Program-made: the position numbers and the translations under genes
The notes under the pieces: model-generated
The model's input: the letters and a program-made list of their open reading frames with translations, nothing else
What the model was told of the DNA's origin: nothing
Databases searched by the model: none
Part shown: positions 11,261 to 49,481 of the stretch, piece by piece
Numbering within the stretch: the first letter of the stretch is position 1
Layout: the number at the start of each line of letters is the position of its first letter
Assembly: GCA_030428125.1 (NCBI GenBank)
Contig: JAUIBF010000001.1
Coordinates: 426,383-490,382, forward strand
Direction: 5' to 3'
DNA from: a bacterium
Lineage (GTDB): Bacteria > Patescibacteriota > Saccharimonadia > Saccharimonadales > SZUA-47
Length of the DNA stretch: 64,000 nucleotides

Positions 11261-11652
11261 TGGCTGAGCATTACACATACGCATTAGGTCGCCGAAAAAG
11301 CGCTACAGCACGTGTACGCCTAACAAACGGTAAAGGAAATATTACTGTTAACGGTGTAACTGCTGAAGAGTATTTTGCTGGAAGCGGTATGCTTCTAACT
11401 GAGCTAAAAGCTCCGTTTAAAGCTATAGAAGACGACAAATACAATGCATCTGTAGTTGTAAGTGGTGGTGGCCACGCTGGTCAAGTTGACGCTATTAAGC
11501 TTGCTATCTCTAAAGCTCTTGTTGAAAAGAACGAAAGCTTGAAAGGTACGCTTAAGAAAGCTGACCTACTCGGACGAGATCCTCGAGAGAAAGAACGTAA
11601 GAAGTTCGGACTTAAAGGCGCTCGTAAGCAACGACAGTTTACCAAGCGTTAG
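11260..11652 (+). CDS. rpsI: 30S ribosomal protein S9
   Basis: 130 aa ending ...ARKQRQFTKR, with the S9 core GGGHAGQVDAIKLAISKAL. Confidence 0.95.
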   Translation: MAEHYTYALGRRKSATARVRLTNGKGNITVNGVTAEEYFAGSGMLLTELKAPFKAIEDDKYNASVVVSGGGHAGQVDAIKLAISKALVEKNESLKGTLKKADLLGRDPREKERKKFGLKGARKQRQFTKR

Positions 11653-11670
11653 GAAACTTTCGTTAACTAG

Positions 11671-11701
11671 ATACCCCGGGCACTATACCTGGGGTATTTT
11701 T
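11671..11701 (+). terminator. Intrinsic terminator of the r-protein operon
   Basis: ATACCCCGG (11671-11679) pairs with CCTGGGGTAT-side bases 11689-11697 (9 bp including one G-U). The loop is 9 nt and a T-run follows. Confidence 0.75.
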
Positions 11702-11704
11702 AGT

Positions 11705-11733
11705 TTGCAATTGTAATAGTTTAGTTGTATTAT
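11705..11733 (+). promoter_or_regulatory. sigma70-like promoter of the pheA leader
   Basis: TTGCAA (11705-11710), 17-nt spacer, TATTAT (11728-11733). The leader ATG lies 9 nt downstream. Confidence 0.55.
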
Positions 11734-11742
11734 CATCTTGAT

Positions 11743-11820
11743 ATGAAACAGATCGTAAACTTCTTTTACTTTTGGTTTACTAGCCCTAAACAGGCGGTTT
11801 GTTCAGTACGCATAAAATAA
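11743..11820 (+). CDS. Aromatic-rich leader peptide MKQIVNFFYFWFTSPKQAVCSVRIK
   Basis: A 25-codon ORF not in the track with six consecutive Phe/Tyr/Trp codons at 11761-11778. It contains the antiterminator arm and lies upstream of the pheA-like gene. Confidence 0.6.
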   Translation: MKQIVNFFYFWFTSPKQAVCSVRIK

Positions 11821-11867
11821 TTAAGCAAGATAAGAACAAGACAGACCGCCAGGACAGGCGGTTTTTT
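11793..11867 (+). promoter_or_regulatory. Attenuator with alternative antiterminator (11793-11802 : 11841-11850) and terminator (11843-11850 : 11857-11864 plus T6)
   Basis: Hand-paired 10-bp versus 8-bp mutually exclusive helices share the ACCGCC arm. T6 lies at 11862-11867. Confidence 0.6.
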
Positions 11868-11885
11868 AAATTAACGGAGTAGTAA

Positions 11886-12749
11886 ATGGGTCTAATAGTA
11901 GCGCAACAAGGAATAAAGGGTTCGTATCATGACATAGTTCGTCAGGATATGTTTCCCGATAGTACTATGATGGGTCTAGATAGCTTTCATGAAGTCGTTT
12001 TAGCTGTTGAGGATCGATCTGCAGATATTGGTATTATGGCTGTAGAAAACTCTATACATGCGGACACTCCAGCAGCTTTGGAGTTGCGTACGAACTTTGA
12101 AAGGTTGGAGATATTTGGTGAAACTGTGCTAGATATTACTCACAGACTAATCGGTGCGGCAGACGGTGATATTGACGAGATTAGGTCACATCAAGTTGCA
12201 ATAAGTCAGTGCCGTAAACGTGCTCGCGAACTATATCCAGGCGTTCGGCTTGTAGAGTCAGTAGATACAGCTGTAGCAGTTGAGGAAGTTGCCAGATTAG
12301 CTTTGCAAGGCGTAACTAACGTTGCTGCTATCGGTAGTCGGCTAGCCGGACAGCTCCATCCACATCTAGCAGAAATCCAGACGGATATGAACGACTACGA
12401 TAACAATCAGACGAGGTTCTTGATTTTTAAACGCGAAGATAACGATATTGTAGATTTGGATCCTGATAAAGCCGATAAGACTACGGTGAGGTTAGTTGTA
12501 CCGGATAGAAAAGATGGTCTACTGGACGCGATGAAGATTCTTAGCTATTACGACGTTAACTACACCTCATTAATCGCTAACGGATTTAGGTATGATTCAA
12601 GAGATGGTGAAATTGTTATTCCTGCGGAGTTTACACATGCATGGCACGATGATCGTTTGGTGCAGGCAGTGGCGGAAATAAAGAGCAAGTTAGGTGGAAA
12701 AGTCGATAATTTAGGAAGCTACCCAACAGGGAAAGTTTTGAAGGTTTAA
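11886..12749 (+). CDS. pheA: Prephenate dehydratase (PDT domain plus ACT-like domain)
   Basis: 287 aa with PDT motifs (IMAVENSIHA, IRSHQVAISQC, NNQTRFLIF). A C-terminal ACT-like segment follows (KTTVRLVVPDRKDGLLDAMKIL). Confidence 0.8.
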   Translation: MGLIVAQQGIKGSYHDIVRQDMFPDSTMMGLDSFHEVVLAVEDRSADIGIMAVENSIHADTPAALELRTNFERLEIFGETVLDITHRLIGAADGDIDEIRSHQVAISQCRKRARELYPGVRLVESVDTAVAVEEVARLALQGVTNVAAIGSRLAGQLHPHLAEIQTDMNDYDNNQTRFLIFKREDNDIVDLDPDKADKTTVRLVVPDRKDGLLDAMKILSYYDVNYTSLIANGFRYDSRDGEIVIPAEFTHAWHDDRLVQAVAEIKSKLGGKVDNLGSYPTGKVLKV

Positions 12750-12750
12750 T

Positions 12751-13437
12751 ATGAGTGACATAGTAGGAATAGTTGGGTGTAACGGCGACTTAGGTGGGCA
12801 ACTAGCCTTGTTACATAGACAGTTTGGCGTTGAAGTGGTAGGGTTTGATATTGAATATCGTGAACGACCTTTTAAAGTCGTGCAGAGTCTGGCAGAACTT
12901 CAAGTACAAGTTGAAAATATTCACTGGTGTGCACCTGCTTCAGTAATAGATACTTACGATGCAGAGCATACAGATTTAGGTCGAGTAATTTTGCACGATA
13001 GCGTCATGAATAACAGTGCGTTGGCGTGCGATGTTCTCTCGGAGAGAACCAATAGAGGAGTAGGTATGGCTCACATGCTAATGAACTCGCAAAATATGGT
13101 GGTGATTGCTCAAGAGTCAGATGACCCTATAAGTTTGGTTGGCATTTTTGAAGACATTGGTTGTAAAACCCAAATCATGTCCGCTGTAGAGCATGATACA
13201 GTTATGGCTCACTCTCAAGCTATATACGCGATACTGCACGAGCTTGTTAGCGAAGAATTAACTACATATGGTAACTTTGGCCTGCTAACACCCTCAGGAG
13301 AAGAGTTAAAAGGTGCATTAGAAAGTAGAGCAGCGATTTGGACCCCTGCTACAATGGCGTCGCTACTTAAGAATCCACAAATAATTCCACTATTAGAAAA
13401 AGCTAGGAATATGGCTAAGGCGAGAAATGGTAACTAA
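12751..13437 (+). CDS. Prephenate/arogenate dehydrogenase-like protein (short TyrA-like)
   Basis: 228 aa with an N-terminal Rossmann-like IVGIVGCNGDLGG and a VEHDTVMAHSQAIYAILH segment resembling the TyrA H-D...H region. It is adjacent to pheA. The assignment is tentative. Confidence 0.5.
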   Translation: MSDIVGIVGCNGDLGGQLALLHRQFGVEVVGFDIEYRERPFKVVQSLAELQVQVENIHWCAPASVIDTYDAEHTDLGRVILHDSVMNNSALACDVLSERTNRGVGMAHMLMNSQNMVVIAQESDDPISLVGIFEDIGCKTQIMSAVEHDTVMAHSQAIYAILHELVSEELTTYGNFGLLTPSGEELKGALESRAAIWTPATMASLLKNPQIIPLLEKARNMAKARNGN

Positions 13438-13447
13438 GGATAAAACA

Positions 13448-13510
13448 ATGAAATTTTTAAACAATAAGTTTTGGTATTTCGTGACGACACTAGGTTGGCG
13501 GTATTGCTGA
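13448..13510 (+). CDS. Second aromatic-rich leader peptide MKFLNNKFWYFVTTLGWRYC
   Basis: A 20-codon ORF not in the track with SD AAGGA at 13436-13440. Seven of its 20 codons are Phe/Trp/Tyr. It contains the antiterminator arm. Confidence 0.6.
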   Translation: MKFLNNKFWYFVTTLGWRYC

Positions 13511-13557
13511 AGTTACTAAATTTAACGAACTACAGACCGCCGACGAGGCGGTTTTTT
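13494..13557 (+). promoter_or_regulatory. Second attenuator with antiterminator (13494-13502 : 13536-13544) versus terminator (13534-13541 : 13547-13554 plus T6)
   Basis: Hand-paired 9-bp versus 8-bp alternative helices. The terminator sequence ACAGACCGCC...AGGCGGTTTTTTAA is nearly identical to the one at 11841-11869. Confidence 0.6.
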
Positions 13558-13583
13558 AATAGATAAATTAAGGAGAAAAAATA

Positions 13584-13847
13584 ATGAATAACTTAAGTTT
13601 AGCGCAAGTCCAAGAATTACTAAGGGAAAATAAAGTTTTAGTTACGCCTGAAGATGACGGAAATCCTGTCCATACTGCTCATGCGATGGGCATTATTGGA
13701 CTAGAACAAGTAGAGCTCACAGAGTCTGGATACTTTGACGGGGTTGATCAAAGTAGAATGATTACCCACGGAAGGGTTGTTGATACTGTTGGTTTTGGTC
13801 AACGAGTAATGCAAGCGGTACTTCTTGATGACGGGAGTTTGACGTGA
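13584..13847 (+). CDS. Hypothetical protein (87 aa)
   Basis: Strong SD (AAGGAGA). It is the first gene after attenuator 2 and its stop overlaps the next start. I recognise no motif. Confidence 0.55.
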   Translation: MNNLSLAQVQELLRENKVLVTPEDDGNPVHTAHAMGIIGLEQVELTESGYFDGVDQSRMITHGRVVDTVGFGQRVMQAVLLDDGSLT

Positions 13848-14425
13848 AAACCATAGCAATTATTGGCGGAATGGGACCCCAAGCCTCATTATTCGCACAA
13901 AAAAAGATTATTGAGGAATTAGAAAAACGAGATATTAAAGCGAACACCGTTCATATATCTTTAAGCATTGATGAGTTTTTTGATGAAGAGCCTAAATTAA
14001 ATTTAGCTAAAGAACAAAAGAGCTTACTCAAAAACATTAAGGCAGATACGGGTATCATTGCTTGCAATACAGCACACATATTTTTTGATGATTTCCAAAA
14101 ACTAGTAAGTTTTCCTTTGGTTAGTTTAGTTAATGAAGTAGAACTAAGCTCTGATAGCACTATTGTCTGCTCTCCGACAAGCAGAAGCATTAAGATATTC
14201 GGAAGTGACGTACATTACTTAAATGACGATGAATCAAAAATGATCGGAGAAGTAATAAGAAATATCAATCAAAGCAAAAAACACGTTAAGCTTTCAAAAA
14301 TAGTAAAAAACAAGAAAGATCTAGTCTTTGCCTGTTCAGAGATAAGCATGCTTGCTGACCAGGAAGGTATAGATGGTACTGATACTTTGAAGCTTGCTGT
14401 TGATAAGGTAGTAAATACGCTATAA
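13844..14425 (+). CDS. Asp/Glu/hydantoin racemase-family protein (short)
   Basis: IAIIGGMGPQAS, ACNTAH and ACSEIS motifs correspond to the two catalytic-Cys segments of aspartate/glutamate racemases; 193 aa. Confidence 0.7.
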   Translation: MKTIAIIGGMGPQASLFAQKKIIEELEKRDIKANTVHISLSIDEFFDEEPKLNLAKEQKSLLKNIKADTGIIACNTAHIFFDDFQKLVSFPLVSLVNEVELSSDSTIVCSPTSRSIKIFGSDVHYLNDDESKMIGEVIRNINQSKKHVKLSKIVKNKKDLVFACSEISMLADQEGIDGTDTLKLAVDKVVNTL

Positions 14426-15480
14426 TGAAATTAATGAGCAAACAGGTAATTTTGACTGGTATTAGAGCCAACAATGATTTAACTATTGGCAACTATTTTG
14501 GTGCAATTTTGCCAATGATTGATATGGCAACTACTCGCGCTGAAGAGTTTCAGGTTAATTTATTTGTGCCGGATTTGCATAGCTTTACCACACCCATAAA
14601 CCATAGAGAACTGCAGTCGGCCATTTGGAATAATCTACGGATATTTGTGGCCGCGGGGTTACCTCTAGATCAGCCAGATATTCATATATATCGTCAAAGT
14701 TACATCCCGGCACATAGTGAAATGACTTGGATTATAGATTGTTTTGTCGGTATGGGTGAACTTGGCAGAATGACTCAGTTTAAAGAAAAATCTTACAAAG
14801 AGGATGAATCAAAATCTGGCGAGGATAGGGTGAGGGTAGGTTTGTTCAATTACCCAGTGCTTATGGCGGCTGATATCTTGCTTTATAACGCTACATATGT
14901 GCCGGTTGGAGACGATCAGACACAACATTTAGAATTTACACGTGATATTGCAGAACGATTAAACAATAAGTTTGACCAGGAGTTATTCACGATTCCAAAA
15001 CCTGTTAAAGAACAGCACGAATTCTTCGGAAAAGACCAAGGATTACGCATTAAAGATTTGCAAGACCCAACTAAAAAGATGAGTAAATCTGATGAATCTG
15101 GAAAAGGTGTAATATTCTTGAACGATTCGCCTGAGCTAGCAGCTAAAAAAGTCATGTCAGCTACAACAGATTCTGTTGGTCAAGTTAACCTAGACTGGGA
15201 AAATCAACCGGGAATATCTAATCTGTTGCAAATTCTAGCTCTATTTCAGCATAGAAGTATTGAAGAAGTGGCATCAGAGTGGCAAGGAAACACGCAATAC
15301 GGTGAATTTAAGAAGACGGTCGCTGACGCTGTCAAGGGCTTCTTAGTTGACCTGCAAGACAAATTAGCTCAAGTAGACGATTCTGCTGTAAAAACCAAGC
15401 TAGAGGCCTCTGAAGCAGCTATGGACAAAGTTGCTGGTGAGACGCTACTAAAAACTCAAAAAGCCGTAGGTTTGCGTTGA
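14425..15480 (+). CDS. trpS: Tryptophan--tRNA ligase
   Basis: 351 aa with a TIGN variant of HIGH, YPVLMAADILLY, VPVGDDQTQHLEFTRDIAERLN and KMSKS. Confidence 0.93.
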   Translation: MKLMSKQVILTGIRANNDLTIGNYFGAILPMIDMATTRAEEFQVNLFVPDLHSFTTPINHRELQSAIWNNLRIFVAAGLPLDQPDIHIYRQSYIPAHSEMTWIIDCFVGMGELGRMTQFKEKSYKEDESKSGEDRVRVGLFNYPVLMAADILLYNATYVPVGDDQTQHLEFTRDIAERLNNKFDQELFTIPKPVKEQHEFFGKDQGLRIKDLQDPTKKMSKSDESGKGVIFLNDSPELAAKKVMSATTDSVGQVNLDWENQPGISNLLQILALFQHRSIEEVASEWQGNTQYGEFKKTVADAVKGFLVDLQDKLAQVDDSAVKTKLEASEAAMDKVAGETLLKTQKAVGLR

Positions 15481-17999: not shown

Positions 18000-18074
18000 T
18001 GGAGCCCCGATCGAGGATTGAACTCGAGACCTCATCCTTACCATGGATGCGCTCTACCACTGAGCTATCGGGGC
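18000..18074 (-). tRNA. tRNA-Thr (anticodon GGT)
   Basis: The reverse complement folds as a cloverleaf: acceptor GCCCCGA/TCGGGGC, D stem GCTC/GAGC, anticodon stem CATCC/GGATG with loop ATGGTAA, T arm TCGAG-TTCAATC-CTCGA. CCA is encoded. Confidence 0.93.
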
Positions 18075-18169
18075 TTATTTATTAAGTGTCTAAGAACACA
18101 AAATACCAATTTATTCTAGCAAAATCATCTGTTATTTGCTAGAATAATTCGAGTGTTAACAATTTATTT

Positions 18170-18255
18170 GCAGAGATAGTGAAGCGGTCAAACACGGCAG
18201 ACTGTAAATCTGCTGGCATTCGCCTTCGGGGGTTCGAATCCCTCTCTCTGCACCA
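18170..18255 (+). tRNA. tRNA-Tyr (anticodon GTA), long variable arm
   Basis: Acceptor GCAGAGA/TCTCTGC, anticodon stem-loop GCAGA-CTGTAAA-TCTGC, long variable arm, T loop TTCGAAT. CCA is encoded. Confidence 0.93.
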
Positions 18256-18292
18256 GATTATTAAAATCTGATAAAATATTATGACTACATTT

Positions 18293-18369
18293 GCCACCTT
18301 AGCTCAGTTGGTTAGAGCATCTGTTTTGTAAACAGAGGGTCGTCGGTTCGAATCCGACAGGTGGCTCCA
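18293..18369 (+). tRNA. tRNA-Thr (anticodon TGT)
   Basis: Acceptor GCCACCT/AGGTGGC, anticodon stem-loop TCTGT-TTTGTAA-ACAGA, T arm GTCGG-TTCGAAT-CCGAC. CCA is encoded. Confidence 0.94.
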
Positions 18370-31268: not shown

Positions 31269-31344
31269 AGGGGAGTAGCTCAGTTGGTAGAGCACCGGTC
31301 TCCAAAACCGGGTGTCGCAGGTTCAAGTCCTGTCTCCCCTGCCA
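31269..31344 (+). tRNA. tRNA-Trp (anticodon CCA)
   Basis: Acceptor AGGGGAG/CTCCCCT, anticodon stem-loop CCGGT-CTCCAAA-ACCGG, T arm GCAGG-TTCAAGT-CCTGT. CCA is encoded. Confidence 0.94.
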
Positions 31345-49324: not shown

Positions 49325-49353
49325 TTGTAATTACCTATCAGAGGTGCTATAAT
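49325..49353 (+). promoter_or_regulatory. sigma70-like promoter of the rplJ-rplL leader
   Basis: TTGTAA (49325-49330), 17 nt, TATAAT (49348-49353). Confidence 0.6.
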
Positions 49354-49360
49354 TACATCT

Positions 49361-49481
49361 GTTACCGAAGACAGTAGCTGGAGAAATCCTTAATCGCGCT
49401 ACCGAGGATAATAAAGAGATTTATTGTTTTTGAGCACTAAGACGCTACTTCGGAAGAAGTAGTTTTTTAATACTCGGTAAC
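49361..49481 (+). promoter_or_regulatory. Structured rplJ leader (L10-leader-like) containing an internal terminator
   Basis: GTTACCGA (49361-49368) is complementary to TCGGTAAC (49474-49481). That pairing encloses the internal terminator hairpin at 49445-49468. The leader is about 185 nt long. Confidence 0.5.
49445..49468 (+). terminator. Leader terminator upstream of rplJ
   Basis: CTACTTC-GGAA-GAAGTAG is a perfect 7-bp stem with a GGAA tetraloop, followed by T6. It lies 74 nt before the rplJ ATG. Confidence 0.7.

Follow-up and report, generated by a model that had tools for sequence, protein, structure and literature searches.

How is trpS, the gene for tryptophan--tRNA ligase, regulated when it stands at the end of an operon in a member of the Candidate Phyla Radiation (CPR)? 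The question arises from a 64,000-nucleotide (nt) stretch of bacterial DNA, here called the window (contig JAUIBF010000001.1 of assembly GCA_030428125.1, positions 426,383 to 490,382), which relatives of its TrpS place in Saccharibacteria (TM7, CPR), the best match in a one-genome-per-species GTDB set being 76% identical. The segment at 13436-13557 of the window, which carries what we call leader 2, separates a tyrA-like gene from a gene for an 87-amino-acid (aa) protein, and the original prediction took it for a leader-peptide attenuator paralogous to another, leader 1, at the head of the same operon. We conclude that the segment is very probably a functional, operon-internal transcription attenuator of the ribosome-mediated (leader-peptide) kind. 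The evidence consists of the anatomy of the leader, its alternative pairings and their energies, the conservation of its open reading frame (ORF) and geometry, and its membership of a family of leaders.

Anatomy and folding of leader 2

The stop codon of the tyrA-like gene (TAA, 13435-13437) stands directly 5' of leader 2, and the Shine-Dalgarno (SD) sequence AAGGA (13436-13440) overlaps it, 7 nt ahead of an ATG at 13448; these and the other features of the leader and its operon lie on the + strand. The ORF that begins there, MKFLNNKFWYFVTTLGWRYC (13448-13510), comprises 20 codons and a TGA (13508-13510), and is aromatic at 7 of the 20; codons 8-11 (13469-13480) form the run Phe-Trp-Tyr-Phe (FWYF), the proposed stalling site both from reading the sequence and from comparison with related leaders. 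Within codons 16-19 lies region 2, GTTGGCGGT (13494-13502), the 5' arm of the antiterminator, which in the minimum free energy (MFE) fold pairs with ACCGCCGAC (13536-13544) over 9 base pairs (bp), one of them G-U. Region 3 (13534-13544) is a shared arm: its 13536-13544 portion pairs with region 2, and its 13534-13541 portion, AGACCGCC, pairs with GGCGGTTT (13547-13554) in the 8-bp stem of a terminator, the 3' arm of which runs into U6 (13552-13557), the two together forming region 4 (13547-13557, from hairpin folding). The terminator loop is N5 before GGCGG (or N4 before AGGCGG). The coordinates originally predicted for the SD, the 20-codon ORF, the FWYF run, the 9-bp antiterminator, the terminator and the T6 run all proved exact on re-reading.

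This combination of features is far beyond chance. The motif ACCGCC-N3-8-GGCGGT occurs twice in the 64 kb, against 0.01 expected, and an ATG mini-ORF with at least four consecutive aromatic codons followed by a GC stem and a T-run is found in the window only at leaders 1 and 2, the same search giving a match in none of 30 Markov-shuffled sequences. A consensus terminator scanner failed to report the leader 2 hairpin, a miss that we attribute to its longest-stem rule, which leaves too few T in the tail, and our own scan and ViennaRNA were used instead. Intrinsic terminators do appear to be in use in this genome, for example after rpsI, where the terminator scan places one at 11669-11699.

Folded without constraint, the segment 13436-13565 adopts the antiterminator as its MFE structure (-27.8 kcal/mol, z = -2.4). 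Constrained folding, which the original prediction had proposed as a check, was run on the free RNA with a ribosome occupying either codon 10 or the stop codon, and it yielded mutually exclusive antiterminator and terminator structures. With the ribosome at codon 10, and before region 4 exists, leader 2 folds as the antiterminator (-18.9 kcal/mol); with the ribosome at the stop codon, the terminator (-13.2 kcal/mol) is the only fold possible. The six orthologs described below and leader 1 behave in the same way, forming the antiterminator as long as region 4 is absent and nothing but the terminator when the ribosome is at the stop. The A-site codons of the FWYF run begin 14-25 nt ahead of region 2 and the stop codon begins 6 nt past its end, a spacing that matches the geometry of classical attenuation. 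Folding predicts no region 1:2 hairpin in leader 2, so that untranslated RNA would default to read-through; and since the antiterminator is the default fold without translation, termination would require that the leader be translated. Leader 2 thus has the features of the attenuator class: a translatable ORF with an SD, a cluster of cognate codons, mutually exclusive hairpins with a U-run, and the corresponding geometry.

The leader family between rpsI and trpS

The short ORF is conserved at the equivalent site in relatives, namely in locus L065 and in five metagenomic loci, and the original prediction, which had tied its own validity to such conservation, is borne out on this point. In L065 (TrpS 73% and prephenate dehydratase, PDT, 62% identical to those of the window), the leader MKVTKTQFWYYEKTLSWRYC, closed by a stop codon, begins a single nt beyond the PDT stop, with AGACCGCC-AACAT-GGCGGTTTTTT after it; next come genes for a racemase-like and a DAHP-synthase-like protein, then a 68-aa ORF and trpS. 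The other five leaders were returned by a metagenome scan with the pattern TGGCGGTAYTG...ACCGCC...GGCGGTTT, in which start codon, ORF length and aromatic cluster were left unspecified. They have 19-20 codons each and read, up to their stop codons, MSHKFNRFYYWTHTMTWRYC (L073), MKKNLRKFFYWKYTMTWRYC (L075/L076), MKSLIKQYIWRYHLKRWRY (L074), MKTTIQQFIWRYHLKCWRY (L079) and MKNFSIQIIWRYHLKCWRY (L080). The start, the length and the aromatic cluster of these five ORFs are independent of the search pattern.

In all seven L2-type leaders, that is, leader 2 and its six orthologs, the ORF has 19-20 codons, the distance from the ATG to TGGCGG is fixed at 16 codons, an aromatic cluster with exactly one Trp falls at codons 8-12, and a purine-rich SD is present (GGA or GAAAG boxes in the other loci). 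GGCGG is invariant in the set, codons 2-7 are variable, the aromatic cluster shows synonymous changes (TTT/TTC, TAT/TAC), and the non-coding spacer varies by 33-44 nt. In six of the seven loci the ORF opens close to the stop codon of the preceding gene, at -4 to +11 nt. All seven leaders are located between rpsI and trpS, with a small ORF and/or trpS next downstream; in L074, L079 and L080 the gene after the leader encodes a homolog of the 87-aa protein.

The L2-type leaders belong to a larger family. The analysis of its distribution covered 82 fetched loci. A covariance model, R1, built after a simple scan of loci, gave 59 same-strand matches, every one within the rpsI-trpS interval; they come from 49 of the 67 Saccharibacteria genome loci, with L003 and the window in addition, and exactly two are in the 64-kb window. 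The typical peptide of the family contains NQYWFTDTSRGGLF, with a Tyr-Trp-Phe core common to its members, and the Phe/Tyr runs are longer, for example FFYFWF and FYFFWF, in leaders 5' of PDT or DAHP-synthase genes. In 67 of 70 matches there is an in-frame ATG ORF with its stop between regions 2 and 3. GGCGG is nearly invariant across the family, the arms being GGCGG/CCGCC/GGCGG, and all three reading frames are represented, giving Gly-Gly (29), Trp-Arg (14) and Ala-Val (24), with the last aromatic codon remaining about 18 nt away throughout. This argues that conservation acts on the RNA in region 2 and on the codons in the aromatic cluster. The antiterminator arms pair at 84%, against 36-51% for slid controls, and none of 500 shuffles equalled this value (30 leader-1-type sequences); terminator pairs are 96.6% paired in a 22-sequence alignment, and compensatory variants occur, for example ATCGCC...GGCGAT in L019 and L006. 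Leader 2 fits the family in being on the trpS strand, within the rpsI-trpS interval, and in having a one-Trp aromatic cluster about 18 nt 5' of GGCGG. Counted from the first nt of the last aromatic codon, the distance to GGCGG in leader 2 is 19 nt, the family median being 18 and the typical range 15-23. In L062 (5602-5688), the sensor is duplicated in tandem within the leader peptide, MLTMTHNSNYWFTDFSNYWFTDFIEAVS.

Leader 1 (11743-11872, ATG at 11743; model score 96.7-103 bits) encodes MKQIVNFFYFWFTSPKQAVCSVRIK and has an antiterminator formed by GGCGGTTTGT and ACAGACCGCC and a terminator at 11843-11864 followed by a T-run. The near-identity of its terminator half with that of leader 2, seen in the original prediction, extends to exact direct repeats: ACAGACCGCC at 11841-50 and 13532-41, and AGGCGGTTTTTTAA at 11856-69 and 13546-59. 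A second covariance model, R2, built from 30 leader-1-type sequences only and with no L2-type member, matches leader 2 over its full length (13448-13562, model positions 1-128; 47.6 bits, E ~8e-10) and also matches all six leader 2 orthologs. It follows that leader 2 is a genuine paralog of leader 1, and to that extent the proposal that the two are duplicates of one module holds. The idea of a recent duplication of leader 1 was rejected, as L2-type leaders occur in loci in which TrpS is just 54-59% identical; leader 2 represents a distinct and old subfamily, which ends in WRY(C) before the stop, is led by an SD and adjoins an upstream stop codon. The count of two Trp codons in leader 2 was also correct, and W17 was considered as an additional Trp sensor. 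This candidate was rejected: the codon of W17 is the TGG with which the antiterminator arm TGGCGG begins, the GGCGG of this arm is read as Gly-Gly or Ala-Val in other members, and a ribosome stalled there would mask region 2, so that W17 is not a second sensor and its codon reflects the RNA constraint on region 2.

Two copies are found in the window and in L065, L005, L028, L050, L053, L054, L057, L073, L074, L075, L079 and L080; two leaders in series are a recurrent design. The first copies in most loci have a TTGACA-type -35 box and a TATAAT-like -10 box ending 7-9 nt before the ATG, and no SD (window, L005, L050, L054, L057, L074, L079, L080, L065, L060 and L008), and are probably translated from leaderless or nearly leaderless mRNAs. 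Conversely, second copies of the window type have no promoter and do have an SD. Of 11 operon-internal leaders, 9 have an upstream stop codon near their ATG, at -4 to +11 nt, ATGA overlaps included, a proximity that would fit translational coupling, with a ribosome being loaded as RNA polymerase enters the attenuator. Downstream of family leaders trpS is always found, and PDT or DAHP synthase in several loci. No Rfam family was matched at gathering score by either leader in the window or by the leaders of 8 related loci, and our literature search on leader peptides or attenuation in Saccharibacteria, TM7, Patescibacteria or CPR found nothing relevant, many subscription papers not being searchable. 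The family, its presence in this phylum and the serial arrangement with the second leader beside an upstream stop appear to be undescribed.

Two observations concern the sampled loci themselves. L025 (DATHJH010000014.1) is labelled Candidatus Limnocylindria (Chloroflexota), yet has the synteny rplM-rpsI-leader-trpS-rluD-holB and a TrpS 67% identical to that of the window, and may be mis-binned. The Logan contig of L001 jumps within trpS from AT-rich, Saccharibacteria-like sequence to GC-rich sequence (~1060-2932), and is probably an assembly chimera.

The proposed mechanism and its alternatives

We infer stalling, coupling and actual termination at leader 2 from this anatomy, and the sequence of events would be the following. 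Transcription would start at the promoter before leader 1 and, whenever leader 1 is read through, polymerase would cross the PDT and tyrA-like genes. A ribosome would load on the leader 2 ORF through the SD that overlaps the tyrA-like stop; since the leader ATG is 10 nt after that stop, coupled re-initiation is likely. When charged tRNA-Phe, tRNA-Trp and tRNA-Tyr are ample, the ribosome would reach the UGA (13508-13510) and its footprint would cover region 2, so that region 3 would pair with region 4 and the hairpin with its U6 would end the transcript ahead of trpS and of the two genes that precede it, those for the 87-aa protein and the racemase-like protein. A shortage of even one of these charged tRNAs would stall the ribosome at codons 8-11 (13469-13480), at least 14 nt 5' of region 2; regions 2 and 3 would then pair before region 4 is made, no terminator would form, and the downstream genes, trpS included, would be transcribed.

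The hairpin could instead be a constitutive terminator of the PDT/tyrA-like unit, with the downstream genes transcribed from a promoter of their own and the short ORF present by chance. With its U6 the hairpin is a good intrinsic terminator by itself (-13.2 kcal/mol), a weak promoter-like match (9/12) lies inside the 87-aa gene at 13735-13762, and the second copies in L028 and L057 do carry -35 and -10 boxes of their own. The independent promoter for the gene at 13584, which the original prediction had named as evidence that would tell against attenuation, was not found in the scan of 13557-13584, between the T-run and the ATG, the sole match (13556-13585) overlapping that ATG. In six of the seven L2-type loci, 14-21 nt separate the next gene from the end of the model match, which itself lies ~5 nt beyond the T-run, and in L074 and L079 the homolog of the 87-aa protein, followed by trpS, comes 16-18 nt after the element, which leaves no room for a promoter. 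Moreover, six other loci have retained the ORF together with its length, SD, aromatic cluster and position close to the upstream stop, the complementarity of region 2 is conserved, and a model without L2-type sequences recognises the whole 115-nt element, beyond the hairpin. A constitutive terminator is thus, in our judgement, very improbable.

A factor acting in trans, whether an RNA or a protein resembling TRAP or PyrR, might on the other hand read the invariant GGCGG/CCGCC sequences or a conserved UGGUUUACCGAC-like segment, translation of the ORF being incidental. The helix cores are indeed unusually invariant in view of TrpS sequences only ~55-76% identical to that of the window, there is little covariation, and TAT TGG TTT ACC GAC is conserved at the nucleotide level in leader-1-type members. 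Three mutually constrained segments, however, are expected to be frozen, a point made for other attenuators as well (PMC1262725), 67 of 70 matches retain an ATG ORF ending between regions 2 and 3, and SDs or -10 boxes stand where translation would need them. The order of the aromatic residues in L2-type leaders is permuted (FWYF, FWYY, FYYW, FFYW, IWRY), with aromatic identity and position kept, which argues for selection at the level of codons rather than of a motif. We consider a trans-acting reader highly unlikely. Equally hard to credit is a mini-ORF serving mainly as a translational relay, or as the source of a trans-acting peptide or small RNA (compare peTrpL/rnTrpL), with attenuation secondary. 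The ORF does tightly adjoin the upstream stop codon, re-initiation at leader genes has been proposed before (PMC4833913), and trans functions of leader peptides and attenuator RNAs have precedents (PMC7298713, PMC6614838). The leader stop is nevertheless 73 nt before the next ATG, with the terminator in between, so that direct re-initiation onto the 87-aa gene is implausible; the peptide varies in sequence outside the aromatic cluster and the RNA-constrained C-terminus; and the geometry of the alternative hairpins is conserved. We consider such a function extremely unlikely.

Attenuation by the leader peptide remains our preferred explanation of leader 2, and several points weigh against it. 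Five of the six orthologs were retrieved by TGGCGGTAYTG and the terminator, and those features are therefore conserved by construction. Locus L003 has leader 1 alone, and in L001 and L004 the tyrA-like gene abuts trpS, so that the distribution of leader 2 is patchy and the element dispensable. Covariation among the seven L2-type sequences amounts to one compensatory pair, and its shuffle control was not significant, a significant signal coming only from the 30-sequence family alignment; in the family at large true covariation is scarce because the helix cores GGCGG/CCGCC/GGCGG are invariant, and conservation of pairing could reflect sequence conservation for another reason. With region 4 present, the fold predicted for L073 and L075 under a stalled ribosome becomes the terminator. 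The sensor is short and mixed, with four codons for three amino acids and one regulatory Trp, and the Elf-Ehrenberg model (PMC1183508) predicts low sensitivity and high basal read-through for a sensor of this kind. Finally, trpS, presumably essential, would stand behind two serial terminators, an arrangement workable only if both leak; high basal read-through would be sensible for such a gene.

It is conceivable, and we put it forward tentatively, that the two leaders form a two-stage circuit conserved in Saccharibacteria, in which leader 1 gates the whole operon and leader 2 the distal genes only, trpS included. The first leader of such a circuit would be promoter-proximal and probably leaderless, with an [F/Y]-W-F cluster, and the second SD-led, with W plus Y, beside the preceding stop. 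Were this so, the proximal genes would answer one aromatic signal and trpS the product of two, and tight coupling of transcription and translation would operate in CPR bacteria, as a main regulatory device in genomes with few transcription factors.

Known systems, the operon and its meaning for Saccharibacteria

Leader 2 resembles Escherichia coli pheL-pheA and trpL-trpEDCBA in its short ORF with cognate codons, in a region 2 placed in or just after the ORF, and in exclusive hairpins followed by a U-run; leader 1, moreover, stands before prephenate dehydratase, as pheL does. The proposed mechanism is of a known kind, of which leader 2 would be a new member. Unlike pheL and trpL, leader 2 mixes Phe, Trp and Tyr codons rather than using those of one amino acid, lacks a predicted region 1:2 hairpin and would, untranslated, default to read-through; it is also intercistronic, beside the stop of the upstream gene, and its host is a CPR bacterium. 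The Rfam models of these leaders were tried and rejected: Phe_leader (RF01859) gives leader 2 20.0 bits (13453-13560, E = 3.4) and leader 1 25.6 bits against a gathering score of 55, and Trp_leader (RF00513) gives leader 2 20.9 bits (13490-13560, E = 0.41) against 41.

The original prediction also drew an analogy with E. coli pheM-pheST, in which an aminoacyl-tRNA synthetase gene is placed under a leader peptide with codons for its own amino acid, and not under a T-box. The analogy is apt. No T-box was found in the window at gathering scores, in 11500-13800 at E<=10, or in 8 related loci at gathering scores. Attenuators of the leader-peptide type have been predicted or tested for trpS and leuS of Streptomyces (PMC1262725), and those of trpS are a closer precedent than pheM-pheST. 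Both differ from the present case, in which trpS closes a variable operon and is preceded by two serial attenuators, the leader 2 sensor includes Tyr and Phe, and the family spans a whole CPR class. Tandem attenuators answering different signals, one of them proline, are known from a single 5' leader in Salmonella mgtCBR (PMC3641672). As in mgtCBR and in tandem T-boxes or riboswitches, two serial attenuators on one transcript make combinatorial control possible; unlike those of mgtCBR, leaders 1 and 2 are paralogous and at least one gene apart, so that upstream genes are under one and downstream genes under two.

The gene order of the locus is rplM, rpsI, terminator, promoter, leader 1, PDT, tyrA-like, leader 2, 87-aa gene, racemase-like, trpS, rluD-like, holB. 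The probable operon promoter found by the promoter scan, TTGCAA-17-TATTAT (11705-11733), has its -10 box ending 9 nt before the leader 1 ATG, and the mRNA is accordingly probably leaderless or nearly so. PDT (11886-12749) is identified by PF00800 (125 bits). The next gene (12751-13437) encodes a protein with a GxGxxG N-terminus that has no Pfam match, reaches just E = 0.07 with the NCBIfam prephenate dehydrogenase model, has no convincing match in the PDB and counts 6 homologs in a protein database of 5.8 billion sequences; the protein is of the Rossmann type, and the earlier label "tyrA-like" is weakly founded. The genes beyond leader 2 are those originally named. The first regulated gene (13584-13847), with its own SD, AAGGAG (13570-13575), encodes the 87-aa protein of unknown function, which has no Pfam or NCBIfam match and returned itself alone in a word-indexed search of the 5.8-billion-protein database; jackhmmer over the ORFs of the fetched loci found 3 homologs, in L074, L079 and L080, ~30% identical and with a common GFGQ motif, all encoded between an L2-type leader, which their genes follow directly, and trpS. 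The next gene (13844-14425) encodes an Asp/Glu-racemase-family protein (PF01177, 33.1 bits), the best NCBIfam match of which is cysteate racemase, under the cut-off; after it comes trpS (14425-15480; TIGR00233, 286.5 bits against a cut-off of 176.75, and PF00579). The synteny rpsI...trpS-rluD-holB is conserved, and the rpsI-trpS interval ranges from ~50 nt to 5 kb.

Some features of these operons recur. A gene of the Asp/Glu racemase family is found just 5' of trpS in the window and in L005, L028, L035, L038, L054 and L065. Small ORFs of 68-103 aa with a C-x2-C-x6-10-C motif and then a helix-like E/L-rich stretch occur in leader-controlled operons (L074 6156-6422; the 103-aa ORFs of L079 and L080; L005 4068-4289; L062 5757-6008; L037 5181-5459; L054 2833-3090; L065 5420-5626), often as the ORF between leaders 1 and 2; those of L062, L037 and L065 have no Pfam match, and they may be small Zn-binding proteins. 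Genes of the DAHP-synthase family and PDT genes are found in the leader operons of L017 (4111-5349), L070 (4894-5985), L065 (4522-5430), L060 (4978-5928) and L057 (2449-3507). Elsewhere in the window, Rfam identifies an L10 leader (65.3 bits) and four tRNA genes (49347-49477; 18003-18366; 31269-31341).

CPR bacteria, or Patescibacteria, have tiny genomes with few recognisable regulators, and we know of no cis-regulatory logic worked out for them. An attenuator family present in roughly three out of four rpsI-trpS intervals sampled from Saccharibacteria is a concrete and testable regulatory element, and is indirect evidence for transcription-translation coupling in these organisms. The serial attenuators add a small variation of design, an intercistronic leader beside an upstream stop, and the covariance models R1 and R2 can be used for annotation of the family and for a proposal to Rfam. 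Saccharibacteria are generally described as being without amino acid biosynthesis, and the family offers a handle on how an epibiont reported to be unable to make amino acids senses aromatic ones: the supply appears to be sensed by tuning TrpRS and, in some lineages, also PDT, DAHP synthase and the tyrA-like gene.

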